This document shows, in pieces, positions 1 to 21,704 of a stretch of DNA of 64,000 bases. This DNA comes from a virus, in the IMG/VR virus record IMGVR_UViG_3300048834_000169, positions 1-64,000 of that record; one strand, written 5' to 3'. The notes under the pieces were generated by a model. The model was given only the letters and a program-made list of their open reading frames with translations. It was not told where the DNA came from and did no database searches. The first letter of the stretch is position 1; the number at the start of each line of letters is the position of its first letter. The position numbers were made by a program, and so were the translations under genes.

Positions 1-215
1 TGCAGTTCCTCGTCGAAAAGGGCGCTGACGTTAGGGCCCGTGGCGACGAGGCTCTACGCTGGGCGGCGAGTAAAGGGCACCTAGCCGTAGTGCAGTACCT
101 AATCGAAAAGGGCGCTGACGTTAGGGCCCGTGACGACTATGCGCTACGCTGGGCGGTGGCGAGGGGTCACGAAGACGTGGTAAAGTATTTAGAAAACGTT
201 ATTAAGAAAGGTTAA
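1..215 (+). CDS. Ankyrin-repeat protein, 3' part (truncated by window start)
   Basis: Hand translation from nt 3: QFLVEKGADVRARGDEALRWAASKGHLAVVQYLIEKGADVRARDDYALRWAVARGHEDVVKYLENVIKKG, stop TAA 213-215. Not in the ORF track. Confidence 0.9.
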   Translation, partial: QFLVEKGADVRARGDEALRWAASKGHLAVVQYLIEKGADVRARDDYALRWAVARGHEDVVKYLENVIKKG

Positions 216-218
216 TGA

Positions 219-692
219 ATGAAACAGATTAAAGGAATTATTATCATAGTAGGCTTAGTGCTTATATTATTGCTATCCTTTGGACTCCGGGTAGCGCTTT
301 ACGACGCGGCTATGGCTAACTTAGCTAATAAAAGAGTTAATGAAGAACTTCAGACTACAATTACGAAGCTATCCGCCGAAATCGAATCCTTGAAGTCTAA
401 TCCAGTAACAATTACGAAAGAGGTAATAAAGACCGAGACTAAGGTCATTACCGAAGTTATAACTAAAGTAGTGACAGCAGCTTGTCAGCAGGATAGGGCT
501 AGGCAAAATACTTTAATGCTCAGTATGGGACAGGGTTCGGACGGCTTTCGTATAGGCAAGGCCACAGTAGCAGAGCAGATACGTCCGGTAATCGGAGTAG
601 ATTATTTAAGAAAGATTCAAGATAACGCTAGTATAGGAGTAGGGGTTCTATCCAATAAGACCGTAGTAATTAAATACGGAAGGGATTTCTAA
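219..692 (+). CDS. Membrane-anchored coiled-coil protein, function unknown
   Basis: N-terminal hydrophobic helix, coiled coil, T/K/E/V-rich stretch. Confidence 0.7.
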   Translation: MKQIKGIIIIVGLVLILLLSFGLRVALYDAAMANLANKRVNEELQTTITKLSAEIESLKSNPVTITKEVIKTETKVITEVITKVVTAACQQDRARQNTLMLSMGQGSDGFRIGKATVAEQIRPVIGVDYLRKIQDNASIGVGVLSNKTVVIKYGRDF

Positions 693-947
693 ATGGAACA
701 GATTAAATCATTATTCATATTCGACGTAACTACCACCGAACATGATTATCAGTTCGAGTTCTTGGGTGATATCTTAGAGGAAGTGTCAGCGTTTGGGGAT
801 ACTGAGCAGGACGCTAGGGCTATTCTTAAAAAGGAGTTTGGTGCGTTTTTAGAAAAACAGTGCGTCCTTACTCGAGTGGAGACTCGAACATTGTTCGGTA
901 AAGCCCCAGATAAAAATTCAGTATACTCACAGTCAGACCTCTACTAG
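693..947 (+). CDS. Hypothetical protein
   Basis: ORF directly abutting the upstream stop. Confidence 0.65.
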   Translation: MEQIKSLFIFDVTTTEHDYQFEFLGDILEEVSAFGDTEQDARAILKKEFGAFLEKQCVLTRVETRTLFGKAPDKNSVYSQSDLY

Positions 948-1196
948 AGATTCGCCGTAGTAACCAGTAACTAGACTATTACGGTCTAATAGCGTAAAGT
1001 ATGGTATACGTTTAGAGCGCATTGCAAATATAGGGGTACACGAAGACTCTTCGATAATAGAAGCTTCCCATAATAACTCAGATAGCCGCTTCGGGGCGCT
1101 ATCGTAATTTAAATTGAATACGGCACGACAATACGCTGAATTAGTCAACTCGGCTAAAAAAAGCTCGAACTCATCTTGCTCTGAGAAAGAATTCAT
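933..1196 (-). CDS. Hypothetical protein (probable start MNSFSEQ)
   Basis: Fills the gap between plus-strand genes; extended -10 TGCTATAAT just upstream. Confidence 0.55.
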   Translation of the reverse strand: MNSFSEQDEFELFLAELTNSAYCRAVFNLNYDSAPKRLSELLWEASIIEESSCTPIFAMRSKRIPYFTLLDRNSLVTGYYGESLVEV

Positions 1197-1205
1197 GGTA
1201 GCTAT

Positions 1206-1214
1206 ATTATAGCA
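1206..1214 (-). promoter_or_regulatory. Extended -10 promoter element (TGcTATAAT)
   Basis: Consensus TGnTATAAT 9 nt upstream of the ATG at 1196. Confidence 0.5.
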
Positions 1215-1244
1215 GCTCAATTTAAGATTTTAAAGGAGATTTAC

Positions 1245-1448
1245 ATGATAGCTAAAGATAGTAACGGCAACTTAGTGGACATCGTGATATACGGCGATTC
1301 CGTGGATAATTTAGATGTGCTCAGGGCCGTGTACATTTCTAGCGGCTTTGATGTACCTGACGATGAGATTGATTTTATAATGAATGAGCACTACTATCAG
1401 ATTAAAGACGAATTATTCACTGATAATGGAGAGGAATATGAATATTAG
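1245..1448 (+). CDS. Small acidic hypothetical protein
   Basis: AAGGAG Shine-Dalgarno upstream. Confidence 0.7.
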   Translation: MIAKDSNGNLVDIVIYGDSVDNLDVLRAVYISSGFDVPDDEIDFIMNEHYYQIKDELFTDNGEEYEY

Positions 1449-1674
1449 ATACTTAGGGCTAGCCGCCTTATTAGGTTGCGGGGAGATTACAGTCAGGACA
1501 GTTAGCGATCCTGTAGTTGTTAGGCACGAAGTAGATATATCCAAATTAGAGCAGTATTTCGAGCGTTACTGTAGAGACACGTTACCTGACGGTACCCCAG
1601 AAGAGATACAGGCTTGTGTAGACTTAAACGTAGTTAACTTTATAGACGCATTATCCGAGGTTAGTGATGAGTAA
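1438..1674 (+). CDS. Putative lipoprotein
   Basis: GAGG SD; MNIRYLGLAALLGC lipobox-like N-terminus. Confidence 0.6.
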   Translation: MNIRYLGLAALLGCGEITVRTVSDPVVVRHEVDISKLEQYFERYCRDTLPDGTPEEIQACVDLNVVNFIDALSEVSDE

Positions 1675-2224
1675 TTATATCATACGCAGTCTTAAGAAAT
1701 CACCTAAGACTAGAATAGTAGTAATTCAGTACCCCACTAGTTCAGGTCAAGTAATTTTTTGGGCCAATAAGGATGAGAGCGGCCTGATGCGCAGCACATA
1801 CGCAATTTTTAATGACGAAGAGGTTAGTAATGTCGTAGCTGCTATTTTGGCTAGAGGTTACTGCTCTGAGCCAAGTATCAGCTTTACTAATTGTGAAGTG
1901 GCCTGTATGCACTGGGGCGTTACTGATTCGTATGCGCGCATGGCCCCGTTCTTGGGATTTATTAGCGATGAGGATGATGGTTGGCCCTTTGCTAAAACTT
2001 CGAATCCTTTTTCAGGCACGCCTAAAACAGAAGAACTTCGCAGTACTTGTTACTATTGCCAGACCCCGGTCTCTACTAGTCAATTTTTTAGCTACTCTGA
2101 CGATAAGTATGAAATATCTCTAGCTTGCGCAAAGTGCAAACGCGCTGATAAGATTAAGCTTACTGAAGCTCAGATAAAGACCTGCAATGAGCAGGGAAGT
2201 TATCAAGCTTTTCTTGGGAAATGA
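1664..2224 (+). CDS. Hypothetical protein with C-terminal CxxC...CxxC zinc ribbon
   Basis: CYYC and CAKC pairs. Confidence 0.65.
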   Translation: MMSNYIIRSLKKSPKTRIVVIQYPTSSGQVIFWANKDESGLMRSTYAIFNDEEVSNVVAAILARGYCSEPSISFTNCEVACMHWGVTDSYARMAPFLGFISDEDDGWPFAKTSNPFSGTPKTEELRSTCYYCQTPVSTSQFFSYSDDKYEISLACAKCKRADKIKLTEAQIKTCNEQGSYQAFLGK

Positions 2225-2227
2225 TAA

Positions 2228-2881
2228 ATGCGCGGCACAAATACTCAAACAGATCTTAACAATGATATAATCACGTTTAGTCGCTACGGTCACCTCGCCA
2301 TAGTGCAGTACCTAATCGAAAAGGGAGCTGACGTTAGGGTCCTAGACGACTTGGCGCTACGCGAGGCGGCGTATAACGGTCACCTAGCCGTAGTGCAGTA
2401 CCTCGTCGAAAAGGGCGCTAACGTTAGGGCCCGTGACGACGAGGCGCTACGCCGGGCGGCGGAGAATGGTCACCTAGACGTAGTGCAGTACCTAATCGAA
2501 AAGGGCGCTGACGTTAGGGCCCGTGACGACTATGCGCCGCGCTGGGCGGCGTATAACGGGCACCTAGTCGTAGTGCAGTACCTCGTCGAAAAGGGCGCTG
2601 ACGTTAGGGCCCAAGACGACTATGAGCTACGCTGGGCGGCGAATAACGGTCACCTCGCCGTAGTGCAGTACCTAATCGAAAAGGGCGCTAACGTTAGGGC
2701 CCGTGACGACGAGGCGCTACGCGAGGCGGCGTATAACGGGCACCTAGCCGTAGTGCAGTACCTCGTCGAAAAGGGCGCTAACGTTAGGGCCCAGGACGAC
2801 GAGGCGCTACGCTGGGCGGCTCGTAACGGGCACCTAGCCGTAGTGCAGTATTTAAAGAATGTTATTAAGAAAGGTCAATGA
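2228..2881 (+). CDS. Ankyrin-repeat protein (N-cap plus 6 modules of 30 aa)
   Basis: Tandem ALRxAAxNGHLxVVQYLxEKGAxVRA repeats. Confidence 0.95.
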   Translation: MRGTNTQTDLNNDIITFSRYGHLAIVQYLIEKGADVRVLDDLALREAAYNGHLAVVQYLVEKGANVRARDDEALRRAAENGHLDVVQYLIEKGADVRARDDYAPRWAAYNGHLVVVQYLVEKGADVRAQDDYELRWAANNGHLAVVQYLIEKGANVRARDDEALREAAYNGHLAVVQYLVEKGANVRAQDDEALRWAARNGHLAVVQYLKNVIKKGQ

Positions 2882-3137
2882 TATGCAAACTAAAAAACTT
2901 AGTGCGTCGTTTACTACGAGTCGAATAGGCGACCACTTTCGCCTAACTTTCCGTAATGAGAAAGATCTCGAAACTAAGACTATAGGCGAAGTGTTTACGG
3001 TAGGGCATGAATCAGTCACTGTACGACTAACGCCAAGAACTGCGCTAGAACTAGTTGAGTTTATAGATAGAACGTTAGAAGATTACGACTTTAGCTTAGT
3101 CGACGATAAAAAACGAGTAAATAAAAAGAAGAAATGA
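2859..3137 (+). CDS. Hypothetical protein
   Basis: ORF between two ankyrin genes, overlapping the next start (ATGA). Confidence 0.65.
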   Translation: MLLRKVNDMQTKKLSASFTTSRIGDHFRLTFRNEKDLETKTIGEVFTVGHESVTVRLTPRTALELVEFIDRTLEDYDFSLVDDKKRVNKKKK

Positions 3138-3706
3138 GTATGTTAGCAGTAAAGTGTCAAAACGACCTTGACAACGACTTGATCGTGTTTAGCCGATACG
3201 GTCACCTAGCCGTAGTGCAGTACCTAATCGAAAAGGGCGCTGACGTTAGGGCCCTAGGCGACGCGGCGCTACGCTGGGCGGCGGAGAATGGGCACCTAGC
3301 CGTAGTGCAGTACCTAATCGAAAAGGGCGCTGACGTTAGGGACAGCGGCAAGTATGCGCTACGCGGGGCGGCTCGTAAAGGGCACCTATCCGTAGTGCAG
3401 TACCTAATCGAAAAGGGCGCTGACGTTAGGGCCCTAGGCGACGCGCCGCTACACTGGGCGGCGTTTAACGGTCACCTACACGTCGTGCAGTACCTAATCG
3501 AAAAGGGCGCTAACGTTAGGGCTCATGACGACTTGGCGCTACGCGTGGCGGCGGAGAGTGGACACCTACACGTCGTGAAGTACCTCGTCGAAAAGGGCGC
3601 TGACGTTAGGGCCGGTGACGACTGGGCGCTACGCGAGGCGGCGAATAACGGGCACCTACCTGTCGTGAAGTATTTAGAGAATGTTATTAAGGAGAATAAG
3701 AAATGA
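3134..3706 (+). CDS. Ankyrin-repeat protein (N-cap plus 5 modules)
   Basis: Same 30-aa repeat as 2228..2881. Confidence 0.95.
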   Translation: MSMLAVKCQNDLDNDLIVFSRYGHLAVVQYLIEKGADVRALGDAALRWAAENGHLAVVQYLIEKGADVRDSGKYALRGAARKGHLSVVQYLIEKGADVRALGDAPLHWAAFNGHLHVVQYLIEKGANVRAHDDLALRVAAESGHLHVVKYLVEKGADVRAGDDWALREAANNGHLPVVKYLENVIKENKK

Positions 3707-4764
3707 GCGCAGCATTACGATGGTTACTATTTATCACAGTCGGTCTCCCAATTCAGTGGCTACTGTACTTACTATATCCAGTAGCTATTATACTTTTTCG
3801 TAAAAAATGGCGGGGTAAAATAGGCACATCGTTTAAGGTACCCACAGACGGCCCTAGAAGTTTAGAACAAATTATAGATCTTGGCGCGATCACTAAAATG
3901 CGAAACGAGGTGTTTACAGACAGTAAAGACGACCATACCGCACTAGTCCACTACGGTACCTGGTCGTATAAGCCTATGACTATTGCTAGCGAAGGTCTAC
4001 GAAGACTAGTAAGGGCTGACGGCTCCTTGGAACGCATGTATCCGGTACAGACCGACCCTAATCCCGTCTCTAGAGATTGTCTCACTAGCTGGGTGTACAG
4101 TTACACTATGTTTGGCGGGCCCAAACAAGAGCTAAAGAAGATAGGTCTGCACTATCTGAAGCATTGTTTAGGATTAGCACACCATAATGGTATGGTCTCA
4201 GCCCGTAGTTCTAGTAGCGGCATTAATTACACATTTGATGGTTATAAGAATCTATCTCAGCCGGCCTTTGGACCTAACTACTATAGCTCGGCCTCCTTGC
4301 TTGCGCTTATGCGAAAAGAGTTCGGCGGAGTTTGGCACCTAGTATACTTTATCCACTTTATTTTAATGGGCGGGTGGCTATGGTGGATAGAGCCAGTGAT
4401 CTATAATGATAAACATTTAATTTATTACGACCATCACATCACTTTACTTAATCTAACCGCTATGGAACACTTATACTCATCTCCTCTGAATAGACGAGCT
4501 ATTCGAAGGGTAGCTGTAGAAATTGCGCCGCAAAACAATATTAATGCGTTCTTCTACGCTATGGCGTGGAATGCTGGGGTCCTTACTGAAAAAGAAAGGC
4601 AAGATGCTGTAATGGTCCTTAGAAACATTGCCCACTTTTGGCCCCAGGAACCGGCTACTGGGCCGGACTATCTAAATGGCAGACAATCATTAGAAAACTG
4701 GTCGATGATGGGGTATCACGCAAAACTGTTAAAGAACCCTGCAAAAAGGCTACCTAGACCATGA
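3703..4764 (+). CDS. Membrane-associated hypothetical protein
   Basis: 353-aa ORF, N-terminal TM segment, translationally coupled. Confidence 0.7.
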   Translation: MSAALRWLLFITVGLPIQWLLYLLYPVAIILFRKKWRGKIGTSFKVPTDGPRSLEQIIDLGAITKMRNEVFTDSKDDHTALVHYGTWSYKPMTIASEGLRRLVRADGSLERMYPVQTDPNPVSRDCLTSWVYSYTMFGGPKQELKKIGLHYLKHCLGLAHHNGMVSARSSSSGINYTFDGYKNLSQPAFGPNYYSSASLLALMRKEFGGVWHLVYFIHFILMGGWLWWIEPVIYNDKHLIYYDHHITLLNLTAMEHLYSSPLNRRAIRRVAVEIAPQNNINAFFYAMAWNAGVLTEKERQDAVMVLRNIAHFWPQEPATGPDYLNGRQSLENWSMMGYHAKLLKNPAKRLPRP

Positions 4765-4970: not shown

Positions 4971-4971
4971 T

Positions 4972-5406
4972 ATGCAAACTGAGCTAAACTGTGCCCCTAA
5001 ATTTATAGTCGTACTTCAAGATTTCGTTGGCGATGCTGGCATAGCTCATCCTATAACTCAAACAGCCCCTGGTCGACAGTTTAGCATGTGGCTAGAGGCC
5101 GCAGGACTATTAGGGTACGATTTTCGTATTACAAGTGTCATTAAACGCTCTATAAGCCCCACTGAGAGGATTTCTTCTGAAGAACGGGCAAATGCCTTAG
5201 ACGTTCTAAACGTTGAACTACAGCCGTTTAAATGCGTTATATGCCTAGGGACTATTGCATCAACCGCCGTACGTAAGTTAGAATTTACTGATAAAATAGT
5301 GCTGGCCTTAGCTCGCCCTCAGGACATTGAGGGCCAGTCTAGTCTACCTCAAAATATTAAAGATATAATTGAGTCTTTACAGAAGTTCAAATCTAAGCTA
5401 GTCTGA
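4972..5406 (+). CDS. Degenerate uracil-DNA glycosylase family-4-like protein
   Basis: PGRQFSMWLEAAGL, ITSVIK and VICLGTIA resemble UDG-F4 segments; the GEAPG motif is absent. Confidence 0.5.
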   Translation: MQTELNCAPKFIVVLQDFVGDAGIAHPITQTAPGRQFSMWLEAAGLLGYDFRITSVIKRSISPTERISSEERANALDVLNVELQPFKCVICLGTIASTAVRKLEFTDKIVLALARPQDIEGQSSLPQNIKDIIESLQKFKSKLV

Positions 5407-5425
5407 CTATAGAAGGAGTGCCTAA

Positions 5426-5647
5426 ATGAGCTTTAGAGAGTGTCAGGATATTATCGTGCTGGATTTTATGATAAACGGGGAGCGCCGAGATGTGGGTGGT
5501 AGATATGAACGTCCGGCTAAAAGCGATTCTGGCACTAGGCACTGGGTAATCATTAATACGGTACGTCTTACAGTAGACGAGGATAAGATAGTAGATGCCC
5601 AAGCTTATTGGGACTCAAAACGCAAAGCCAATAGTGAGGGTAAATAA
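5426..5647 (+). CDS. Hypothetical protein
   Basis: AAGGAG SD upstream. Confidence 0.6.
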   Translation: MSFRECQDIIVLDFMINGERRDVGGRYERPAKSDSGTRHWVIINTVRLTVDEDKIVDAQAYWDSKRKANSEGK

Positions 5648-5964
5648 TGACTAAGCAAGAAATAGACGAATGGATCGCTATGCAGTCTACTAACTTAATG
5701 GCGGATATGCTTAGTTTTGGCGGCTCAGAATTAGAATTCAGGGATTATATGTACGATAGATTTAAGTTTACCTTGGAGCTTACAGCTTCCATGCTCTCTA
5801 GTGGTCCGTCTGTTAGAGTTTCTAAGTTTGCAGTGGAGAAGATATTTGAGACTGCTATCGTAGAGTTTAATCAAAAAAACGGCGGCCTGACTCCTAGAGA
5901 GGCGGCTATATACGAAGCGGCTTTCTTCGATGCAGCTAGGCGTCTTAATAAGAATAGGGAATAG
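5647..5964 (+). CDS. Hypothetical protein
   Basis: TAATG coupling. Confidence 0.6.
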   Translation: MTKQEIDEWIAMQSTNLMADMLSFGGSELEFRDYMYDRFKFTLELTASMLSSGPSVRVSKFAVEKIFETAIVEFNQKNGGLTPREAAIYEAAFFDAARRLNKNRE

Positions 5965-5966
5965 TT

Positions 5967-6182: not shown

Positions 6183-6433
6183 TGAGAAGCGTTCTTGGTA
6201 CTATTGTAGCAGCGTTATTGTTACTTATAGCCTATACGGTAGGCGGCGAGTTTACTTATTACTACATGGCTAAAAATGTAGAAAGAGCTTATCTACTGGG
6301 CTGCGGACTAGGTCGCGCCAAGCAGTACAATTTTACAGTGCCGTTGCCGCCACAAGACGTAGTCTTTTGCCATACTGCGGCCAGTTACTTTAACGGTACG
6401 CTAAACCCCTCCAGCGGTAACGGCTCTAAGTAA
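6182..6433 (+). CDS. Small membrane or secreted protein
   Basis: Hydrophobic N-terminus, TAATG coupling. Confidence 0.6.
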   Translation: MRSVLGTIVAALLLLIAYTVGGEFTYYYMAKNVERAYLLGCGLGRAKQYNFTVPLPPQDVVFCHTAASYFNGTLNPSSGNGSK

Positions 6434-7381
6434 CAGCCTGGCCATCAACTCCCGAAACTCCTGTGCGGAGCCGCCGATATTTAACCTAATATAACTATCA
6501 GAGTCTCCAAAATCTCGCCCCCTATAATACTCTACCCCGATCTGGTCTAGCGTATCGGTAGGGTCCTTGATATAAGCGAACATCCCTCGCTGCTCTCCAT
6601 AAATATGGGTAGGGTACGCCTGATAAAATTCGTTAATACGATCGTTAAGAACCTCTCGTGCTCTATCGAGTATGGAACTCCCCACTTGCATTTCTATAAG
6701 AACGCCCTCTATGAATTCCACGGCTACCTGCTGAGCTAGTGGACTTACTCCACATGTACTCATTTCAATATGAGAAGAGATAACTTTAGCTAAATCTTCG
6801 TGATTATTTACAGTGACGCCCTTTTTAACTAGTGCCCAACCTAGCCTAACTGACGACATTCCGGACAGCTTGCTAAAACTAAAAATTAGTACGTCATTAT
6901 TCAGGGGTACGAGTTTTTCGTCAGGCCTGTAAAACGTAGGCCAATGGTAAGACGCATCCACTACCTTAGCTTCGTTAACTATCGCAGATAGCTTACCATC
7001 AGGATTATTAGGGTAGGTTACCATTAGCTTGTGTAAATTAGGGTTATTGTGGTCGTGGGGAAACTCTCTTGTGAATACCTGCATGTCTTCTACTAAGTAC
7101 CTAAACCTAGACCAAAATGGAATATATACGCCTACTGGCATAGCCCTCGATACAGCCGTCAGCATTTGACTTGCACCATTAGAGATTACCACGTCATAGT
7201 CGTGTATATTTAGTACATTGCCAACTTGCTCATGCAATGACAGGATGCTCTCTATTAAATCCTTTTGCGGTGCCGTATGATCGTAGGACTGGTTAGCCGA
7301 TGATATCGTGCCGTAGTACTGAGCATCAGTTAATTCTTGAATAAATGCTGGATTTCCAAATCTTAGGTCAAGCTTTTTCAT
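6401..7381 (-). CDS. PLP-dependent aminotransferase, alliinase/TAA1-like (fold type I)
   Basis: GASQ, YPNNPDG, DASYHWP and FSFSK(PLP Lys)LSGMSSVRLGWALVK motifs. Confidence 0.85.
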   Translation of the reverse strand: MKKLDLRFGNPAFIQELTDAQYYGTISSANQSYDHTAPQKDLIESILSLHEQVGNVLNIHDYDVVISNGASQMLTAVSRAMPVGVYIPFWSRFRYLVEDMQVFTREFPHDHNNPNLHKLMVTYPNNPDGKLSAIVNEAKVVDASYHWPTFYRPDEKLVPLNNDVLIFSFSKLSGMSSVRLGWALVKKGVTVNNHEDLAKVISSHIEMSTCGVSPLAQQVAVEFIEGVLIEMQVGSSILDRAREVLNDRINEFYQAYPTHIYGEQRGMFAYIKDPTDTLDQIGVEYYRGRDFGDSDSYIRLNIGGSAQEFRELMARLLLRAVTAGGV

Positions 7382-12214: not shown

Positions 12215-15178
12215 CTAGAAGTTGCCCCACCCGTCTTTTTCAGTGTCCTTTGTCTCTAAGATCTCTAAGTCTGCTTCTTCCTCGGAGCTAAGCGAGCGAA
12301 TGTTACCAGTCATGCCATCCCAGCCAAGCCCCACAGAAAACTCTTTACCCATGCGCGTCTTTAAGGCTGCAATGCGAAGATACTTATCTTGATCGCCTTT
12401 ATTATAGCCAGGCCTCCACAGGCCAAACAGTACCGTAGCGGATTCCTCAATAGCGGAAGATCCTTTAGCAATTCGGCTATCTGTAAGAGGTGTAGCAGGG
12501 CCGCCCTTAGACCTTGCAATCTGAGCTAAGCTAATAATAAGCGTTTCAGTCTCGTTAGCTAAGTCCGATAGTTTGGGGGCGATATAAGCTAGATTAGCCG
12601 TCTCATCGGAATAGGGCCCTCGAATTCGATTAATGAAATCGTACACTACGAGTTTAAGATCGGAGCCGTGTTGGTCCTTCATGGCCAGTAGATTTTCTCT
12701 AAGCTCACCAATCTCTACTCCAGACCTAAAGTCGAAGAATACGTTCTTGTACTCTTCCATGATCTTTTGCTGGATTTCTTTGATGCGCTTCTGATCTTTG
12801 TTCTTAAAGATATCGTAGAGCCTCTTATCAGTTAGTCCGCTTACTTTCTGGGCCAGCTTTTGGTAGATTAGTGGGGCCCCCATATCCATGCTGCCCATGA
12901 CTGCCTTTAGACCAGCTTTACTGGCGTTGTTTAAAATATTTAGAATAGTGCTAGTATTATGTGTGACTGTAAAGTCTGTGCCCAGCACAAATCGTTTATT
13001 ACCGTCAATCTCAAACCCAAAATACTCTCCAAAACCTATATTCTCTAGTGAGATTTTAGTGCAGTCTTGATATCTCTGTTTAATCTGAGCTACGGCCCTT
13101 TTTCTTGCAAGCTTATTCGGTATAAGATCTAATCTGTCCCCAGTTAGATAAGCCCTATAAGCAACTGCATCCCCTTCGTAGAGTTTTCCTTTAGTAAAAG
13201 ATCTGTAATGCTTTAATTCTCTCTTATAGGTACACTTATACCCTACGGAGCGACATAGCCACTGAAATTGCTGCATAAGTCGCTCATCCGAGGATGTGAA
13301 TTCAAAAGTATTTTTATTGGGATCGTAGTGCCCGTCAGAGTCTAATAAGCCTGCGATTAAATCTAACCTCTGCGCCTTAGATCCCGTTAGATATATCCTA
13401 TGGACGTGCTTATCATTTACAAGCTCCAGTTCTCTAAGCGTATTAACGAATTCGTTTTTATTCCCGTAAAAATATACGGATACTCCATTCTCCGACTCGC
13501 GCGCAGCGTTAAACTTATAACCCTTAGCTGTGGCGTAGTTTTTAATATACTCCAAAACTTCCACGTCTTTCGCATGCATACTCACTTGAGGTTTTGATTT
13601 GCTGCCGTTGCCTAGCCAGTATCCCATAAGATAAGCAGGAATGGGTTGCGATTTTTCTTCGAATTCAACAGCCGCCTTGTATCCTTTAAAGCACTCTTTG
13701 AATTTACCGCTTGCATTTAGGTACTCTTTAACTGAAATATCTACTACTCTATTAGCGATATAAGTCTTAGTGGCCTTGTGTTGCTGATCATTAGTACACT
13801 TTAAGGACAAAATGTGAGACTCGTTTACTATGTAGTCTGCTCCATCTTCTTGGCTCACTTTATATAACGTTTCAGAACCTCTTGCTAGCGACAATACGGT
13901 ACGAGGAGTAGAATCGTCTCCCATAAGCAAGTCGCCTACTTTAACGTCTTCGACTACCTTAGTACTACCGTCGTACATTAGTACTAAGGTCCCCTTACCT
14001 AGACATTTGCCTGAGCCACTCGAACCCGCTATAACTACGTGACTGTGGGTCTGTAGTCTAATACTATCATCAATAGTATCTATTCCAGTCTTAATAGTAT
14101 TTTTATCGATGTTAGTGGCGTAGTTAGAGAAGATGTCTGACACTGAGTCAATCGTTACAAACTCTTTCTTAGCCTTACCGCTACACTTGCCACCGGTAGG
14201 GCAAATAGCCTTTAACCAGTCATGATCTGCGCAAGAGTACGTGGCACCTTTCCAGTGAGGGCCGTACAGCACTTCTATAATATTGTTCCAGATCTCAGTC
14301 TTATCGAACGGCGTTTGGTTATAACGCCTACCTTGAAGTTCGGCTGCACCCTTCAGGATTCTATAATTAACTTCTTTTGGCACGCCTTTAGATTTGTAAT
14401 GTGCGCCTAAAGCCATTAGCGCGTTATTGCGATTACCAGATGGGAAGTCCCCATTTAGGATGCGATACTTACAGGAGGGCATGCCGCGTTCTTTTTTAGA
14501 GTAATCGATGTCACCAACCTCGGCGATGGGCGTAACTTCTGGGGCGCTATTAGCGAGCGCTAGAATGGCCTGAGGAAGCTCTACGCCGTCTACGGCAGGA
14601 GAGGCTGCGTTATCCAAGTTCTTAGCCAGCTCCTTAATCTGGTCCATATTAAACTCGCTTAACTGTTCGATGCTAATAGGGAGTTTGTACAGCCCAGTGG
14701 CGGGGTGCTTAGTATAAGGGACGCGAAATACCCTAGACGCATTATAGATCTTAGTGTCCAGCGTATTTAGTCCAGTGGCTAAGTTCTGGGCTACATTTTT
14801 TAATTGAGTGGGCGTAAAGGAGTGAACAGTTTCTAATTCTACACTAAAGCCTTTAGAGCCTGAATAGGATACAAGCATCTGGTCTCTAGCGACGCCTAAG
14901 CTAATTAGTCTAGATACCAGCTCTACTGTGTCCTTTCTAGCTTGCTCTGTGTCGTCCTTACTATCAAAGTCGAACACTAAGCTAGGAGTGACTACATCGA
15001 CTATACCGGCTACGGTCTTAGTCTTCTGAAACTCGTTAAACTGATTCTCTGAGTAGCGATAGACACTTCTATAGTAATCGCTATTATAATCCTTAATGAA
15101 CTTAGAGATCTCATTAGGGGGGATAAGTTTACCGTAATCTGAAAGTCCTTTAGTAAGTCGTACGTAATTCACTTGCAC
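12215..15178 (-). CDS. AEP primase / DnaB-like helicase fusion containing an intein
   Basis: LVFDFD and SGSKG primase motifs; Walker A AGSSGSGK/T split by the intein; VVYDFI Walker B; LAQIAR; KGSSAIEE. Confidence 0.92.
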   Translation of the reverse strand: MQVNYVRLTKGLSDYGKLIPPNEISKFIKDYNSDYYRSVYRYSENQFNEFQKTKTVAGIVDVVTPSLVFDFDSKDDTEQARKDTVELVSRLISLGVARDQMLVSYSGSKGFSVELETVHSFTPTQLKNVAQNLATGLNTLDTKIYNASRVFRVPYTKHPATGLYKLPISIEQLSEFNMDQIKELAKNLDNAASPAVDGVELPQAILALANSAPEVTPIAEVGDIDYSKKERGMPSCKYRILNGDFPSGNRNNALMALGAHYKSKGVPKEVNYRILKGAAELQGRRYNQTPFDKTEIWNNIIEVLYGPHWKGATYSCADHDWLKAICPTGGKCSGKAKKEFVTIDSVSDIFSNYATNIDKNTIKTGIDTIDDSIRLQTHSHVVIAGSSGSGKCLGKGTLVLMYDGSTKVVEDVKVGDLLMGDDSTPRTVLSLARGSETLYKVSQEDGADYIVNESHILSLKCTNDQQHKATKTYIANRVVDISVKEYLNASGKFKECFKGYKAAVEFEEKSQPIPAYLMGYWLGNGSKSKPQVSMHAKDVEVLEYIKNYATAKGYKFNAARESENGVSVYFYGNKNEFVNTLRELELVNDKHVHRIYLTGSKAQRLDLIAGLLDSDGHYDPNKNTFEFTSSDERLMQQFQWLCRSVGYKCTYKRELKHYRSFTKGKLYEGDAVAYRAYLTGDRLDLIPNKLARKRAVAQIKQRYQDCTKISLENIGFGEYFGFEIDGNKRFVLGTDFTVTHNTSTILNILNNASKAGLKAVMGSMDMGAPLIYQKLAQKVSGLTDKRLYDIFKNKDQKRIKEIQQKIMEEYKNVFFDFRSGVEIGELRENLLAMKDQHGSDLKLVVYDFINRIRGPYSDETANLAYIAPKLSDLANETETLIISLAQIARSKGGPATPLTDSRIAKGSSAIEESATVLFGLWRPGYNKGDQDKYLRIAALKTRMGKEFSVGLGWDGMTGNIRSLSSEEEADLEILETKDTEKDGWGNF
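12956..14005 (-). mobile_element. Intein (350 aa) with LAGLIDADG homing endonuclease
   Basis: Starts CLGKGT after the Walker A Lys; block B NESHIL; LMGYWLGNG and LIAGLLDSDG motifs; ends VTHN before Thr+1. Confidence 0.93.
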
Positions 15179-15213
15179 AGTCCGCTCCTATATGTAAAGT
15201 TAGTGCCTTAAGT

Positions 15214-15546: not shown

Positions 15547-15574
15547 ATTATCTCCTTTGTTTAGTGCGGTATAC

Positions 15575-16135
15575 TTACAGGTTAAACAGAATTCGCCTAA
15601 TAGTCAACGGCGCGATGGTCCCGGAGTTATTACCCTCTAGTATCAATAACATGTTATCTGTTACTTGGAATACTTCGTCGCTACCTTCGGCTAATGAATT
15701 TACGTGTGATCCCGAACAACTGCTGTTTGGGTAGATCCTAACGTCATTGGCAGTGGTGGATGATTTTTTAGCGCTAAAGTTATTCCCTAGATCAAAGCAC
15801 GAGACGTGGTTAGTGAAGTTGAACGACGTTACTGAAGCCACTGAATTATTACCGTCTGTGCCGTTACAGGAGACTAGTCCGGACTGGAATACATCTCCGG
15901 CACTCACTGTTCCAGAAGAGTCCGTATCTTGGTACACGTCTATTGCGGTTCCAGTAGAGGACGGGCACTCCAGTGCAGTAGCTGTTCTGGCCTGGCTAAT
16001 TAAAGCTAGCCCATTTACACCGTCAGCTCCATCGGCACCATCTACCCCGTTTATACCATTAATTCCTGGCAATAGCTGAGTCTGCGGTGATCCGCATGAC
16101 GCCAGCATTGCTGCCAGCAAAATCTTGTATTTCAT
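15575..16135 (-). CDS. Lipoprotein with short collagen-like Gly-X-Y stretch
   Basis: MKYKILLAAMLASC lipobox; GINGINGVDGADGADGVNG; AGGAG SD. Confidence 0.75.
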   Translation of the reverse strand: MKYKILLAAMLASCGSPQTQLLPGINGINGVDGADGADGVNGLALISQARTATALECPSSTGTAIDVYQDTDSSGTVSAGDVFQSGLVSCNGTDGNNSVASVTSFNFTNHVSCFDLGNNFSAKKSSTTANDVRIYPNSSCSGSHVNSLAEGSDEVFQVTDNMLLILEGNNSGTIAPLTIRRILFNL

Positions 16136-16148
16136 CTTAGCTCCTATA

Positions 16149-16433
16149 TTAGATAAAACGAACGTCGTCGGCAAGCACTTCTACGTAACTCTTACCCTCG
16201 TGAGTACGAGTCTGAACTCGCCCCTCTACGATTACCGCCTTACCTTTTGTAAGAAACTTCTTACACGTATCTGCCAATTTACCAAACATCTTCACATTAA
16301 AGTATTCAGTCTCTTTCTTTTCGCCACGCCCGAAGTTAGTGGCTACTCGAATTTTAACCATGGACTGATCAGGTAAATTAATTACGTCTGGATCTTGAAC
16401 TAAGTTTCCAGCTAATACGATTTTATTATACAT
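16149..16433 (-). CDS. ssb: Single-stranded DNA-binding protein (OB fold, no acidic tail)
   Basis: NKIVLAGNLVQDP...VATN...KGKAVIVEGR. Confidence 0.9.
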   Translation of the reverse strand: MYNKIVLAGNLVQDPDVINLPDQSMVKIRVATNFGRGEKKETEYFNVKMFGKLADTCKKFLTKGKAVIVEGRVQTRTHEGKSYVEVLADDVRFI

Positions 16434-16936: not shown

Positions 16937-16950
16937 TTTATTATTCTCCT

Positions 16951-17627: not shown

Positions 17628-17646
17628 GATTTCCTCCAGTGTTTTT

Positions 17647-17675
17647 AGATTATACTAGTCTTCAGTGAATGTCAA
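17647..17675 (-). promoter_or_regulatory. Sigma70-like promoter TTGACA-17-TAATCT
   Basis: Perfect -35, 17-bp spacer, followed by GGAGG SD. Confidence 0.65.
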
Positions 17676-17863
17676 TGGTCAAAGACGGTAGGGATATGAG
17701 CTTTTGCTTCTTGCGCTTTGATGCTTTCCTGCTCAACCTTTAGTAAAAATTCGTGACATCTAGCGTTAGATAATACTACTACTACGTGCTGCAAGTTACT
17801 TAGTGTAGACGGACGATTGTAGTAAAGCTCTCTAGTTATTGCGATAAAGTTTAGCACTTGCAC
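17672..17863 (-). CDS. Hypothetical protein
   Basis: ORF filling the gap downstream of the ankyrin gene. Confidence 0.45.
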   Translation of the reverse strand: MQVLNFIAITRELYYNRPSTLSNLQHVVVVLSNARCHEFLLKVEQESIKAQEAKAHIPTVFDH

Positions 17864-18549
17864 TTCTTAAGCTCCTTAATAACGTTTTCTAAATATTGTA
17901 CGACGTCTTTGTGTCCATTATGCGCCGCCTCGCGTAGCGCCTCGTCGTCACGGGCCCTAACGTTAGCGCCCTTTTCGATTAGGTACTGCACTACGGCTAG
18001 GTGACCATTCTCCGCCGCGTTACGCAGCGCCTCGTCGTTACGGGCCCTAACGTCAGCGCCCTTTTCGATTAGGTACTGCACTACGGCTAGGTGACCGTTA
18101 TCCGCCGACCAGCGTAGCGCCGAGTCGTCACAGGCCCTAACTTTAGCGCCCTTTTCGATGAGGAGCTGTACTACGTCTAAGTGACCGTTACGAGCCGCCC
18201 AGTGTAGCGCCGCGTCGTTATAGGCCCTAACGTTAGCACCCTTTTCGATGAGGTACTGCACTACGGCTAGGTGCCCGTTAGTAGCCGCCCGGTGTAGCGC
18301 CTCGACATCATCGGCCCTAACGTCAGCGCCCTTTTCGATTAGGTACTGCACGATGTCTAGGTGTCCATTCTCCGCCGCCCTGCGTAGCGCCGCGTCGCCA
18401 CGGGCCCTAACGTTAGCGCCCTTTTCGATTAGGTACTGCACTACGGCTAGGTGCCCGTGGCGGCTAAACTTGATTAAAGCGTCGCTAAGCTCTGTTTGAA
18501 AATGTGCGGTACCGCTATTTACTTTGTTGTTGGTTAAAGTCATAGGCAT
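17851..18549 (-). CDS. Ankyrin-repeat protein (N-cap plus 6 modules)
   Basis: Same 90-bp module as the 2-3.7 kb genes, on the opposite strand. Confidence 0.95.
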   Translation of the reverse strand: MPMTLTNNKVNSGTAHFQTELSDALIKFSRHGHLAVVQYLIEKGANVRARGDAALRRAAENGHLDIVQYLIEKGADVRADDVEALHRAATNGHLAVVQYLIEKGANVRAYNDAALHWAARNGHLDVVQLLIEKGAKVRACDDSALRWSADNGHLAVVQYLIEKGADVRARNDEALRNAAENGHLAVVQYLIEKGANVRARDDEALREAAHNGHKDVVQYLENVIKELKKCKC

Positions 18550-18751
18550 AATATACTGTATTTATTTCCAGTTGTGATATGATTTCGGCCCTATCTGTGG
18601 ACGTGGCTACCGTCTCTACGTGCATAACTTCGTCCCCGTGCATCTTTAACTTACGTAACTCAAAACCATCATGAGTCACTGCAATTCCAAGCACATAGTA
18701 AGGTCCTTTGTCTTCTTGTTTCATTCTAATTGATCTTCCTATTTTTGCCAT
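18515..18751 (-). CDS. Hypothetical protein
   Basis: AGGAG SD and TGGACA-17-TAGATT promoter upstream. Confidence 0.65.
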   Translation of the reverse strand: MAKIGRSIRMKQEDKGPYYVLGIAVTHDGFELRKLKMHGDEVMHVETVATSTDRAEIISQLEINTVYYAYDFNQQQSK

Positions 18752-18801
18752 ATGTCTCCTATATGTTATAATCTAGCAAAAGCGCGAAACTATGTCCACA
18801 C

Positions 18802-19947
18802 TTACTTTTCAATCTTAACTACATCTTTATTATTATTATGCCAGCATACTGAGTAATACGGGCATATTAGGCTTCCATTCTTACAGGCTGACATGTTTCT
18901 CGGGAATACCTGGGCCTTTATAGCATGGTTAACTTCTTCGAAGTTCTGGATAGTTATGGCCTCCGTTTGTTCCGGGATATCTGATATAAGTACTTGGATA
19001 TCCGCTGCCGGCCTCAGCACTTCTTCCCACTCTCCTGAACACCGCTTACCGCCTATTTCGTTATTACAGGTTCTAGCTCTGTTGCCCTCCCCGTCCATAT
19101 TACACACGCTGCACTTCTTACTAGCGTTCTTATTAATAAGTTTTCGTAATACTATGAACCCTGCTGTCCTAGACTTAAGCTCATTCTCGAGTGCGTGCGA
19201 ATATATAGCTAGTTGCGGGCTCTTTAGAACAGCGTCGGCTTCGTACTCCCTAGCCGAGGTTTTGTTATCAAATACTATAGTTCTTCCGTCTTCCCATATG
19301 GCAATTAAATCTATAAATCCCGTAATAGAGTCTCCACTGTCGCTTTGAATATCGATTGCCCGCTGAGCGCTTATCACTCTTTTAATTCTAGGTATAATCT
19401 TCTCTAGATAAGCTTTTATCATCAGCTCACCTTTAATACTTAAGCATAGCCAGTTAGCGTAGTTATAGTACTTGCGCTGATCGTCGTTAAGGTTATTCCA
19501 GCCGTCCGCTTCTTTTTGCTTACCTATAGCCTTAAATAGGTCCACTAGATCGGCGTGATCCCCTTTAGGTAATGGCCCTACTCCTGGATATAGGGACGTG
19601 GCCGCAGTAAGTAGCGCATCAAAGTCTTTATTAGACATTAACTTCCAGTCCATATCTGACGCTGCGTAGACTACATCAGGGTTATCATATAAATCTACGA
19701 TCTTTTTATTAACTTCGCCTCGGCGCCAATTATTGATAAACGTGGTCTTATACGTCTGTCCTAGCCAGTCTATGTTATTTGCCGCATGATCATTTAGCAT
19801 ATCCGTGAGTGCCTTGTCTATTGCCGTGCCGAATAGTAGCGCCGCACTAGGATTTTTGGGGTACAGCTTTTCTATATACCGAAGTTTGTACTTATATGCA
19901 CAAGTAGTATAAGTAGATACTGAACTATGGGATAACTTATTAGTCAT
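18802..19947 (-). CDS. PD-(D/E)XK nuclease (RecB/Cas4-like exonuclease)
   Basis: LSHSS...C, GFIDLI, FDNKTS, QLAIY, C-terminal C..C...C. Confidence 0.85.
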   Translation of the reverse strand: MTNKLSHSSVSTYTTCAYKYKLRYIEKLYPKNPSAALLFGTAIDKALTDMLNDHAANNIDWLGQTYKTTFINNWRRGEVNKKIVDLYDNPDVVYAASDMDWKLMSNKDFDALLTAATSLYPGVGPLPKGDHADLVDLFKAIGKQKEADGWNNLNDDQRKYYNYANWLCLSIKGELMIKAYLEKIIPRIKRVISAQRAIDIQSDSGDSITGFIDLIAIWEDGRTIVFDNKTSAREYEADAVLKSPQLAIYSHALENELKSRTAGFIVLRKLINKNASKKCSVCNMDGEGNRARTCNNEIGGKRCSGEWEEVLRPAADIQVLISDIPEQTEAITIQNFEEVNHAIKAQVFPRNMSACKNGSLICPYYSVCWHNNNKDVVKIEK

Positions 19948-20052
19948 GCTTATACACTAACTCAAATAATGCACGTTGTAAATAGCTATACTTTTGACAC
20001 TTGCATATACTAAGGTACTAATGTATATTGATCATGTGAGGAGAGTAATATC
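19948..20052. promoter_or_regulatory. Divergent sigma70-like promoter region
   Basis: Minus strand TTTACA-17-TAGTGT 6 nt before the ATG at 19947; plus strand TTGCAT-17-TATATT, then GAGGAG SD. Confidence 0.55.
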
Positions 20053-20280
20053 ATGAAAGTTATACTAGAATTTGAAGTGCCCGGGGAGCAATACGAACTA
20101 GATTGTGCCCAAAAGGGGATGGCCTATAAGCACGCAGTGCAGGAGTATGATCAAGAACTTCGCAGTATTGTGAAGTACGGCGGAGAGGAATATTCGGAAG
20201 ATTATACTAAAGCCGTAGCAGAAATGCGAAAGAAGTTGCATGATATATTTTTAAGTGAGGGGCTAAGCATCCATGACTAA
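20053..20280 (+). CDS. Conserved phage hypothetical protein
   Basis: MKVILEF...A......D.ELRS..KYG pattern; strong SD. Confidence 0.7.
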   Translation: MKVILEFEVPGEQYELDCAQKGMAYKHAVQEYDQELRSIVKYGGEEYSEDYTKAVAEMRKKLHDIFLSEGLSIHD

Positions 20281-21190
20281 GAAATTTGACCTACAAGCAT
20301 TTAAAAAGTCGCTTCAGGCGGCAAGCGTTCCGTACAAGAAAGAGAATTATATCCAATGGGACGATGCCCTAAAAGAAGTATCCGGATTACCTGGTCTACC
20401 TTTAGGCCATATAACTCAAATCTACGGACCTAGTAACGGCGGAAAGACTACCCTAGCTCTTACTTTGGCGGCAAAAGCGCTGCAGCAAAACGTGCTGCCC
20501 ATATTCATAATCACAGAAGGTAAGTTTATGCCGGAGCGGGCCGCGACTATGGGCGTCGACGTGGATGCAGTCCTATCTGTTGACGTAACGTATATCGAAG
20601 AGATTTTTGATGAGATTCATAAGTTCCTATCTGCACAAAGCAAGGGCGACATACCTAAAGATATTTTATTTATAGTGGACTCTATCGGAAATACCATTAG
20701 TAGAGATTCTGTACGCATTGCTAAAGACGGTAATACTGAGGTTGGCGGCGCTATGATGAAAACGTCAAAAGTAATTCGCGAGCAGATGCGGGTAGTTAGT
20801 CATAGGATTAACGATACGCGTAAAGTAAATAGCCCGCATTTTGCAGGCCTGGTATTCATTAACCATTCGTATAAGCAGCCGCCAGCGTTTCCTGGAGGGC
20901 CTACTACAGACGTTCCTTACGGCGGGGATGGGATTTACTATTCGTCTAGCTTAGTTATTAAAGTGCGTAAGACACGTCAGCTTAAGGCCGTAAAGGACGG
21001 ACGAGACGTTTCTTTCGGGATAGCAGCCAAGCTGGCTGTTGAGAAGAACCACATTAATGGGGTATCCAATGAGGGCCCTTTCTTAATTACTTCTAACGCT
21101 ATTATACCGGACGATCCTGCAGCGCTTAAGCAGTACAAAGAAGATAATAAAGATTCCTGGGGCAACGTAAAGATAGACGTTGAGGAGTGA
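20273..21190 (+). CDS. recA: RecA/UvsX-like recombinase
   Basis: GLPLGHITQIYGPSNGGKTT Walker A; IVDSIG Walker B; PYGGDGIYYSSS; VEKN. Confidence 0.9.
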   Translation: MTKKFDLQAFKKSLQAASVPYKKENYIQWDDALKEVSGLPGLPLGHITQIYGPSNGGKTTLALTLAAKALQQNVLPIFIITEGKFMPERAATMGVDVDAVLSVDVTYIEEIFDEIHKFLSAQSKGDIPKDILFIVDSIGNTISRDSVRIAKDGNTEVGGAMMKTSKVIREQMRVVSHRINDTRKVNSPHFAGLVFINHSYKQPPAFPGGPTTDVPYGGDGIYYSSSLVIKVRKTRQLKAVKDGRDVSFGIAAKLAVEKNHINGVSNEGPFLITSNAIIPDDPAALKQYKEDNKDSWGNVKIDVEE

Positions 21191-21471
21191 CTATGTACGC
21201 TTATTTGATGTTTATGGCGTCCTTTACTGCGTGTCCCGCTACTGAGATTATAAATAAAACTTTTATACCAATTAATCAATTTGATATGCGGCAGTTAAGT
21301 AGAGCGCAGTTACGTTGCCGACAGCTGTATAAAAAAAGCCCGTGTCTTAAAATCTTCACTAAAATAGGGGAGCAGGATTACACCGCGATTTGCGGTAAGA
21401 CTCGCAGCGCAGAGGTTGCGATAAGATCGGTATCGCCCGACGACATTGATGCTAGTGTACCGCTATACTAG
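21187..21471 (+). CDS. Small Cys-containing hypothetical protein, possibly exported
   Basis: Hydrophobic N-terminus, four Cys. Confidence 0.6.
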   Translation: MTMYAYLMFMASFTACPATEIINKTFIPINQFDMRQLSRAQLRCRQLYKKSPCLKIFTKIGEQDYTAICGKTRSAEVAIRSVSPDDIDASVPLY

Positions 21472-21503
21472 ATTCTTAAGCTTGAGCAGAAGGTTATATA
21501 AGT

Positions 21504-21704
21504 ATGTTAACAGTAGAGTGTCAAAACGATCTTAACAACGACTTAATCACGTTTAGTCGCTACGGTCACCTAGCCGTAGTGCAGTACCTAATCGAAAAGG
21601 GCGCTAACGTTAGGGCCGATGGCGATGCGGCGCTACGCTGGGCGGCGAATAACGGGCACCTAGCCGTAGTACAGTATTTAAAGAATGTTATCGGGGAGAA
21701 TTAA
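21504..21704 (+). CDS. Minimal ankyrin-repeat protein (N-cap plus 1 module/C-cap)
   Basis: Same caps and module as the other copies. Confidence 0.9.
   Translation: MLTVECQNDLNNDLITFSRYGHLAVVQYLIEKGANVRADGDAALRWAANNGHLAVVQYLKNVIGEN

Follow-up and report, generated by a model that had tools for sequence, protein, structure and literature searches.

Eight cap-module-cap ankyrin genes of a probably virulent phage, with a variable helix 1 stripe and signs of exchange between loci

The DNA analyzed here, referred to as the window, is a stretch of 64,000 nucleotides (nt), bases 1 to 64000 of an 81,795-bp IMG/VR virus record (IMGVR_UViG_3300048834_000169), and our subject is a family of ankyrin-repeat genes that it carries. 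A six-frame search of the full record identified eight such genes, each encoding an N-terminal cap (N-cap), one or more internal modules, and a C-terminal cap (C-cap). A previous reading of the window, made from the sequence alone, had listed five ankyrin genes. All five of these open reading frames (ORFs) were present where it had placed them, but the genome contains eight genes, and what had been listed first, at 1-215, is only the terminal 3′ portion of a longer gene, which begins at genome position 81050 and crosses the contig junction. The ankyrin genes and a recombinase gene that bears on their evolution are as follows, with protein lengths in amino acids (aa).

Genome 77569-78147: ankyrin gene with 5 internal modules
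Genome 79293-79673: ankyrin gene with 3 internal modules
Genome 80059-80436: ankyrin gene with 3 internal modules
Genome 81050, across the contig junction, to 215 (+): wrap-around ankyrin gene, 8 modules as assembled
Window 1-215 (+): 3′ end of the gene starting at 81050, with two complete modules and the C-cap
Window 2228-2881 (+): ankyrin gene, 217 aa, with N-cap, 6 modules of 30 aa, and C-cap
Window 3134-3706 (+): ankyrin gene, 190 aa, with N-cap, 5 modules, and C-cap
Window 17851-18549 (-): ankyrin gene, 232 aa, with N-cap, 6 modules, and C-cap, located in the replication module
Window 20273-21190 (+): UvsX-like recombinase gene (phrog_97, E value of 2.6e-31)
Window 21504-21704 (+): minimal ankyrin gene, 66 aa, with N-cap, 1 module, and C-cap, located between the UvsX-like recombinase gene and a protease gene

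The ankyrin proteins range in size from 66 to 277 aa and consist of caps and modules, the number of modules varying from 1 to 8. All eight reading frames are intact, with both caps present. Complete internal modules number 20 in the window and 37 in the genome, and the most divergent of them are found in the gene at 3134-3706. Together, the genes occupy 4,299 nt, or 5.3% of the nonredundant genome. The family had been described as dispersed, which holds in part; however, six of the eight genes lie within a block of approximately 7.8 kb that spans the contig junction. The claim that ankyrin DNA is unusually GC rich was confirmed, with a GC content of 0.564 for the ankyrin genes compared to 0.442 for 62 other ORFs, and the GC content at third codon positions (GC3) was 0.64 in the modules compared to 0.40 in the rest of the genome. 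Open frames of 48 to 83 codons lie antisense to ankyrin modules at window positions 3202-3351 (-), 17858-18004 (+), and 18248-18499 (+) and, in L080 coordinates, at 13793-14017 (-); these frames are probably a by-product of repeat composition and not genes.

IMG/VR classifies the record as having direct terminal repeats and as 100% complete. The terminal overlap is 127 bp long and is located inside an ankyrin gene; this 127-mer occurs at genome positions 1, 81399, and 81669 (81399-81525 and 81669-81795) and sits within a 167-bp exact repeat. Because the 127-mer is present three times in the 167-bp repeat, the number of modules in the wrap-around gene, eight as assembled, is ambiguous. No other exact repeat shared between loci exceeds 109 bp, and the flanks of each locus are unique to it. 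The 127-bp "terminal repeat" has the appearance of an overlap of assembler word size formed at a repeat, not of a physical end of the genome, and the record is most readily interpreted as an assembly closed into a circle, with an ambiguous module count in the wrap-around gene.

All 37 modules are exactly 30 residues long, and each protein is composed of an N-cap, 1 to 8 modules, and a C-cap with the motif YL(K/E)NVI; the caps and the module length are those that had been claimed. The four window proteins tested all matched the Pfam families Ank, Ank_2, and Ank_4 far above the cutoffs; for example, Ank_4 scored 190.4 bits against a cutoff of 22.7, and the 66-aa protein scored 38.6 bits against 27.3 with Ank_2, a family that had 18 matches in the whole genome. 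Only Ank families passed the Pfam cutoffs, and the NACHT or NB-ARC ATPase of the NOD-like receptors (NLRs) was not among the domains found. An AlphaFold2 model of the 232-aa protein, with a predicted local distance difference test (pLDDT) score of 94 and a predicted template modeling (pTM) score of 0.86, consisted entirely of helices, with no DSSP strand and no β-hairpin, and its N terminus formed a cap helix. The top Foldseek match of this model was the designed ankyrin ANK-N5C-317 (4O60; template modeling [TM] score, 0.82; root mean square deviation, 2.7), followed by designed ankyrin repeat proteins (DARPins) and natural ankyrin domains, the latter with TM scores of 0.76 to 0.78.

The model of the 232-aa protein has the stacked helix-turn-helix solenoid fold of the ankyrin superfamily. 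The canonical 33-residue unit with a β-hairpin and TPLH motif was not found; most modules have the motif A-L-R, and P-L-H occurs in 1 of the 37. An HMMER alignment to DARPins placed a 3-residue gap in the β-turn of the phage module. As judged from alignment and model, the modules are a short-loop, hairpin-free ankyrin variant in which three canonical β-turn residues are missing, and they are still members of the superfamily. The single-sequence fold of the 66-aa protein was a low-confidence prediction (pLDDT, 60.4; pTM, 0.42); a one-repeat designed ankyrin is reported to be stable in the available text of PMC8683736, and a one-module architecture is therefore not implausible. In a hydropathy check, none of the eight proteins exceeded a Kyte-Doolittle value of 0.99 over 19 residues, and none had a hydrophobic segment suited to membrane anchoring or to the function of a signal peptide, a result that, within the limits of such a check, agrees with the earlier statement that signal peptides are absent.

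Variation among the modules is concentrated in a few codons. With the module register starting at the Leu of the L-I/V-E-K-G-A stretch, the amino acid entropy of the 37 modules was highest at positions 21, 11, 18, and 14 (2.97, 2.64, 2.18, and 2.10 bits, respectively), followed by positions 26, 22, and 12 (1.63, 1.55, and 1.42 bits). Positions 7 and 17, which are dimorphic, had approximately 1 bit each, and the remaining positions were close to zero, with values of 0 at many framework sites. The top four codons accounted for 43% of all pairwise residue differences, and the top seven accounted for 67%. The sequence-only reading had put the number of variable codons at about five per module; the concentration that it described is real, but seven codons vary strongly.

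Selection was assessed with a simple Nei-Gojobori contrast that is not recombination aware. For the 20 framework codons, the proportions of nonsynonymous (pN) and synonymous (pS) differences were 0.032 and 0.239, and the ratio of the corresponding rates (dN/dS) was 0.11; on these counts, the framework is under purifying selection. For the seven hypervariable codons, dN was 0.65, which is 2.3 times the framework dS (0.29), and more than half of all module pairs differed by 2 to 3 nucleotides within a single codon at positions 11, 14, 18, and 21. Per-codon entropy and dN/dS had been proposed as a check on whether variation is spread evenly over the module, and by both measures it is concentrated. 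A 51-nt framework string quoted in the same proposal occurs 15 times in the window at three or fewer mismatches (7 of these exact), compared to 0 occurrences in 100 shuffles, and the codons GAA, AAG, and CAC are identical in 37 of 37 modules; however, the assertion that near invariance of the framework includes its synonymous sites goes too far, as the mean pS shows.

The residues found at the four top sites are also distinctive. W, Y, and R make up 67 of the 148 residues at these sites, compared to 8.2% in other ORFs; E is enriched as well, and no K, M, or P occurs there. Hot spots of protein binding typically contain W, Y, and R. The combinations of residues at the four sites were almost all distinct, with 35 different combinations among the 37 modules.

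In the HMMER alignment to DARPins, phage positions 11, 14, 18, 21, and 22 correspond to ankyrin positions 33, 3, 10, 13, and 14. According to the available text of PMC4308713, natural ankyrin repeats have their highest entropy (>1.6) at positions 2, 3, 5, 10, and 13, and the ANK-N5C library was randomized at these five positions and at position 33, which gave a continuous binding surface on β-turn 1 and helix 1. All four top phage sites (ankyrin positions 33, 3, 10, and 13) fall within the randomized set that is described there, so that the variable codons do lie on the face randomized in designed libraries, as the earlier reading had stated. In the pLDDT 94 model of the 232-aa protein, helix 1 begins at position 10 or 14 and extends to position 21, and the variable sites map along it. 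The 3-4-3 spacing of positions 11, 14, 18, and 21 on this helix implies that they would share the same helix side, which follows from helix geometry and not from computed exposure. DARPin libraries randomize positions 2, 3, 5, 13, 14, and 33; phage positions 21 and 22 align to DARPin positions 13 and 14, both of which are randomized in DARPins. We infer that the phage proteins bind other proteins via the variable helix 1 stripe.

The genes also carry signs of exchange between loci. Each of them is a mosaic. Along the gene at genome position 79293, for example, the exactly matching paralog is first the gene at 21504 (over 96 nt), then the wrap-around gene (81 nt), then the gene at 77569 (109 nt), and last the gene at 80059 (50 nt). 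Among pairs of codon columns, 188 of 253 were phylogenetically incompatible, and in permutation tests of the pairwise homoplasy index (PHI) type, neighboring columns were more compatible than shuffled ones, with p values of 0.0002, 0.02, and 0.005 for codon windows of 1, 2, and 3 and of 0.0002 to 0.009 at the nucleotide level. The nearest neighbor of a module was located in its own gene for only 9 of the 37 modules, and module DNA identity was 0.836 within genes and 0.828 between genes. Mean pairwise module identity was 0.758 for protein, 0.829 for DNA, and 0.909 for framework DNA. Homology stops at the ORF boundaries, with flanks that are approximately 27% identical, no better than random. 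Recurrent residues at the variable sites are almost always written with one codon each, suggesting that these states were copied and not reinvented.

The mosaic exact tracts, PHI-type tests, unrelated flanks, and single codons per recurrent residue all bear out the earlier proposal that the paralogs were diversified by recombination. The analogy with a DARPin library, by comparison, suits the architecture but not the nature of the variation, since the use of one codon per residue indicates that limited states were reshuffled and that the sites were not randomized.

Base composition follows the modules: their GC3 ranges from 0.60 to 0.74, whereas C-caps have values of 0.22 to 0.29 in five of the eight genes and N-caps share the high GC3 only partly, the cap samples being small. 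A rise in GC3 restricted to the modules would fit either GC-biased conversion or a separate origin of the modules. No reverse transcriptase (PF00078) match was found in the genome, and the positive control was found in three genomes. A single-stranded DNA-binding protein and a PD-(D/E)XK-type exonuclease, both read from the ORFs, are encoded in addition to the UvsX-like recombinase, and together these proteins are candidate machinery for inter-locus exchange. A 75-bp exact inverted repeat is shared by two ankyrin genes that lie 15 kb apart, at 2657-2731 (+) and 17923-17997 (-); recombination between these copies would invert the replication module.

Concerted evolution of the ankyrin genes is well supported as a mechanism within this one genome. 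The 90-bp units would undergo homologous recombination or patchy gene conversion, possibly carried out by the UvsX-like recombinase of the phage, and this exchange would homogenize the scaffold, bring a limited alphabet of binding-face codons into new combinations, and change the number of modules, which varies from 1 to 8.

The origin of the family was examined through PolA, the DNA polymerase of the phage. PolA homologs in a large protein collection were 61 to 64% identical on contigs of up to 84 kb and 44 to 50% identical on contigs of approximately 63 to 88 kb. The closer group comprises P0122, at 64% identity on 78.7 kb, and P0123, P0126, and P0127, at 61 to 63% on contigs no longer than 84.2 kb. 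A search with the single PolA protein found none in viral contigs or metagenome contigs, and a scan of viral contigs with a PolA profile, built from 25 sequences chosen from 178 matches with the intein-bearing ones left out, yielded 80 loci. Five of the six nearest relatives were examined, with PolA identities of 50% (L083), 44% (L081), 43% (L156), 42% (L148), and 41% (L082); L153 (41%) was left out. Ank_2 matches were found in none of the records of the five relatives, four of which have a completeness of 95% or more; the present genome gave 18 in the same search. The slot of the 232-aa ankyrin gene, next to the small gene at 18515-18751, is taken up in L083 by an HNH-type endonuclease gene that follows the homolog of this small gene. 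The slot of the 66-aa ankyrin gene, bounded by the recombinase and protease genes, contains two unrelated ORFs in L081. The occupant of the slot in L083, at 5270-5764, is a 164-aa ORF that by eye resembles an HNH-type homing endonuclease. The absence of ankyrins from five relatives, together with conserved neighbors around variable slots, indicates that the family is a lineage-specific gain.

The nearest protein relatives of the phage ankyrins are at most 58% identical and keep the 30-residue period. The protein homolog search missed the window's own protein and its 73 to 75% identical paralogs, and an exact lookup found one of seven ankyrin proteins in the collection; blanks in that collection therefore say little about closer relatives that carry the family. 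Genome contigs contained 77 ankyrin loci, the best of which was 43% identical, from many lineages of metagenome-assembled genomes (MAGs), several of them intracellular. A search of viral contigs with an ankyrin protein gave only two loci, at ≤40% identity (one on a GVMAG-labeled contig and one on a 1.02-Mb viral contig), and the framework DNA pattern had no matches in viral contigs and none in metagenome contigs. Among GenBank phages, the best PolA match was 28.7% identical, and ankyrin protein matches occurred in 15 of 50,697 records at ≤39.6% identity, the best of them in WO phages.

The ankyrin genes sit among small genes without assigned function, of early type, and among replication genes, and they often overlap the start or stop codons of their neighbors. 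No integrase or serine recombinase was recognizable in the phage genome, although the positive controls worked; judging from its gene content, the phage is probably virulent. No tRNA genes were found in the genome. A Shine-Dalgarno-like motif precedes 34 of 80 ORFs, compared to a background of 7.3%. Matches to PolA and to an A1-like protein point only to phages of Gram-negative bacteria and cyanobacteria; the latter protein is a homolog of the T5 A1-type "DNA transfer protein," encoded at window positions 22824-24131 (+) (phrog_1745; E value, 1.7e-97), and its best GenBank match is from an Ochrobactrum phage, at 40.7%. A scan of the ankyrin-rich block for sigma-70 promoters and terminators gave 21 sites against 12.6 expected, most of them on the strand opposite the genes. 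When 10 neighbors in this block were compared with Pfam, 6 had no match, 3 had only subthreshold matches, and 1 was PcfJ-like; no known anti-defense gene was recognized among these 10.

Of nine nonankyrin proteins scanned against PHROGs, four had no match; a 326-aa ORF at 6401-7381 (-) likewise had none. By eye, four of the eight ankyrin genes directly precede a gene whose product begins with a hydrophobic, membrane-spanning-like segment, an arrangement that could be due to chance; these downstream genes are at window positions 219-692, 3703-4764, and 21708-22391 and at L080 16414-16605. The primase-helicase encoded at 12215-15178 (-) is 987 aa long, compared to 650 aa in the relative L083, and its extra part, as judged by eye, interrupts the Walker A loop, starts with Cys, ends with His-Asn, and has LAGLIDADG-like motifs, all of which is intein-like; a relative of PolA, P0127, carries intein Pfam domains. 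Predicted lipoproteins at window 15575-16174 (-) and L080 12865-13341 (+) have a lipobox-like Cys after a hydrophobic leader and collagen-like Gly-X-Y runs; the latter scored 25.5 bits with Pfam Collagen, below the cutoff of 27.2.

We consider it reasonably probable (approximately 0.6) that this phage lineage gained and expanded a set of eight cap-module-cap ankyrins that undergo concerted evolution and act as cytoplasmic binders of different targets. Each ankyrin protein would be made in the cytoplasm of the infected cell and would serve as a stoichiometric binder of its own target protein. We have a weak preference for bacterial host proteins, bound in the course of takeover or counterdefense as the earlier reading had suggested, as somewhat likelier targets than eukaryotic proteins, because of the gene context, the apparent virulence of the phage, and the expected location of the ankyrins in the cytoplasm. 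A designed ankyrin has been reported to block a transcription activator in the cytoplasm of Escherichia coli (available text of PMC4308713). In addition, ankyrin domains occur in proteins of defense systems: PADLOC gave matches to PDC-M72A and MzaA that involve the ankyrin part only, and MzaA scored 68.1 bits against a cutoff of 800, short of a full-length match.

Several points weigh against this interpretation. Positions 12 and 26 vary, yet they lie outside the sets randomized in designed libraries. The modules are related by descent, so that the entropy, composition, and permutation statistics overstate their independence; selection for convergent residues could add homoplasy; and an excess of dN over dS could stem from homogenized or constrained synonymous sites in the framework and not from positive selection. 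With a window of 4 codons, the PHI-type test is no longer significant (p = 0.09), and the excess of identity within genes is marginal (p = 0.05). The data come from a single assembled record, in which population variation may have been collapsed and from which ongoing diversification is not read out. Literature searches for phage ankyrins in defense and counterdefense yielded no anti-defense case, only reviews that cite the sponge work. Finally, the named nearest relatives are from a green alga, oomycetes, a tapeworm entry named after "L25," and a Dependentiae bacterium, which favors a role directed at eukaryotes.

Such a role would imply a bacterial host that lives in or on a protist or an animal, with the ankyrins freed by lysis or exported by a secretion system of the host. 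It is a serious proposal, although we regard it as unlikely. The sponge-phage protein ANKp has been shown to bind eukaryotic proteins, and the same has been proposed for the ankyrins of Wolbachia phage WO; the available text of bioRxiv 10.1101/608950 states that ANKp lowers phagocytosis and cytokine expression and that ANK domains are found on 418 IMG/VR phage contigs. WO phages also provide the best GenBank phage matches, at 39.6%, and the nearest named homologs with a 30-residue period are, as listed above, eukaryotic proteins and a Dependentiae protein. The 77 genome loci include MAGs of Rickettsiales, Holosporales, Wolbachia, Legionellales, Babeliaceae, and Chlamydiales; however, these matches are no more than 43% identical, and many free-living lineages are represented too. 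Similarly, weak NCBIfam matches go to Legionella Dot/Icm Ank effectors but fall far under the cutoffs, the best being AnkY at 57.2 bits against 600. The phage proteins have no signal peptide-like segment, unlike two of the three Ankyphage proteins in the sponge-phage account, and since no integrase was found, lysogenic conversion is unlikely. The location of the genes among early-type and replication genes, overlapping the start and stop codons of their neighbors, also argues against a role directed at eukaryotes.

The remaining alternatives concern how the variation arose. The family might reflect a recent duplication burst from one horizontally acquired gene, with no continuing exchange and with variable sites under relaxed constraint; its absence from the five nearest relatives examined and the GC3 of its modules (0.64 against 0.40) would agree with this, as would the generally low constraint on ankyrin surface positions, where natural entropy exceeds 1.6 at positions 2, 3, 5, 10, and 13 (available text of PMC4308713). 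We think such a burst improbable, because the flanks of all eight genes are unrelated even though the ORFs are 83% identical, the nearest paralog changes along each mosaic gene, and homoplasy depends on distance. Moreover, more than half of the module pairs differ by at least 2 nt per codon at positions 11, 14, 18, and 21, against a framework dS of 0.29, and the residues at variable sites are biased to W, Y, R, and E and are not random. It is more doubtful still that short-read assembly collapsed or chimerized repeat variants into false loci. The contig does end inside an ankyrin gene, and the threefold occurrence of the terminal 127-mer in the 167-bp exact repeat leaves the length of that gene ambiguous; the other exact inter-locus repeats, at ≤109 bp, are nevertheless shorter than the 127-bp overlap that we take as the suggested assembler word size. 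No two loci have the same flanks or the same combinations of variable codons, the eight frames are intact with both caps, and the 66-aa protein and PolA are each recorded on two contigs in the protein collection. As for a diversity-generating retroelement or a similar dedicated mutator, the restriction of variation to a few codons of an otherwise constant scaffold is what such a system would produce, but the idea is barely credible here: the genome has no reverse transcriptase (with a positive control), variation affects all three codon positions and is not confined to adenine-templated ones, and the use of one codon per recurrent residue indicates that the residues were copied rather than made anew.

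In evolutionary behavior, the closest analogue of the phage family is the group of high-internal-conservation (HIC) repeats of fungal NLRs. As described in the available text of PMC13449251, HIC repeats (Podospora het-e/het-d/NWD; WD40, ANK, and TPR) are near-identical repeats with few hypervariable sites that set specificity; they vary in number and move within a gene or from one paralog to another through unequal crossing-over or ectopic conversion, and the threshold applied to them is a Psim of ≥0.7. The phage modules are 0.758 identical at the protein level, which is above 0.7 by plain identity, a measure that differs from Psim, and they have four to seven hypervariable sites, occur in numbers of 1 to 8, and form mosaic genes. 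Both a small number of hypervariable positions under apparent diversifying selection and the exchange of repeats between paralogs are seen in the phage family. Unlike the fungal receptors, the phage proteins have no NACHT, NB-ARC ATPase, or effector domain and consist of repeats and caps only. The phage family is viral and not a cellular immune receptor, and it is known from one genome, whereas strain polymorphism is a defining observation in fungi.

Designed libraries (DARPins and ANK-N5C, 4O60) share with the phage proteins an N-cap, self-compatible consensus modules, and a C-cap, and designed ankyrins are their best matches in both sequence and structure. In contrast to these libraries, the phage proteins are natural and have modules of 30 rather than 33 residues; the β-turn "finger" is missing, so that nothing in the phage module corresponds to library positions 5 to 7, and library position 2 aligns to a conserved Asp. 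The phage variation consists of limited, reshuffled codon states and is not random. Among natural phage proteins, ANKp of the Ankyphages and the WO ankyrins are likewise accessory ankyrin-repeat proteins of tailed phages. Our comparison with ANKp was made from its description: in that account, signal peptides occur at the N terminus of two of the three Ankyphage proteins, whereas none was detected by hydropathy in the present family, and a multiparalog family with shared framework DNA, as seen here, is not mentioned in the available text. WO differs in that it infects an intracellular bacterium; its best match is 39.6% identical, and no integrase was found in the present phage.

The short 30-residue ankyrins of protist, giant virus-like, and Dependentiae sequences share the period, the conserved core, and variability at the same positions. 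They differ in that they are no more than 58% identical, are longer, and often have other N-terminal domains (SAP in P0001), and no bare cap-module-cap protein was present among the homologs compared. We presume, on the strength of one source name, "ankyrin repeat protein L25," that the 30-residue repeat type is typical of mimivirus ankyrins.

Phage ankyrins were already known, and immune receptors, fungal and other, as well as protein engineering provide precedents for repeats that combine a constant scaffold with a hypervariable face; the one characterized phage ankyrin that we found in print is a secreted accessory protein. In this case, the two traits are joined in a tailed phage of ordinary size that is apparently virulent, with eight soluble paralogs that would be kept alike by inter-locus exchange. 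If the targets are host proteins, the family would be a compact natural system for studying how viruses evolve new protein binders, and every paralog could be used directly to probe a host factor of importance in infection. The 30-residue, hairpin-free module may also serve as a natural minimal ankyrin scaffold, for which the tolerated and preferred surface residues can be read from 37 copies.

A further possibility, which we put forward only tentatively and consider rather unlikely, is that the genes form a self-renewing binder repertoire, in which the recombination machinery of the phage continually reshuffles a small set of binding-face codons and whole modules among the eight loci. If so, a phage population would carry many ankyrin paratopes, with which it could keep up with host proteins that vary, for example those of defense systems. 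With such a repertoire, the phage would possess, on the side of the attacker, an equivalent of the hypervariable HIC sensor domains in cellular NLR immune receptors.

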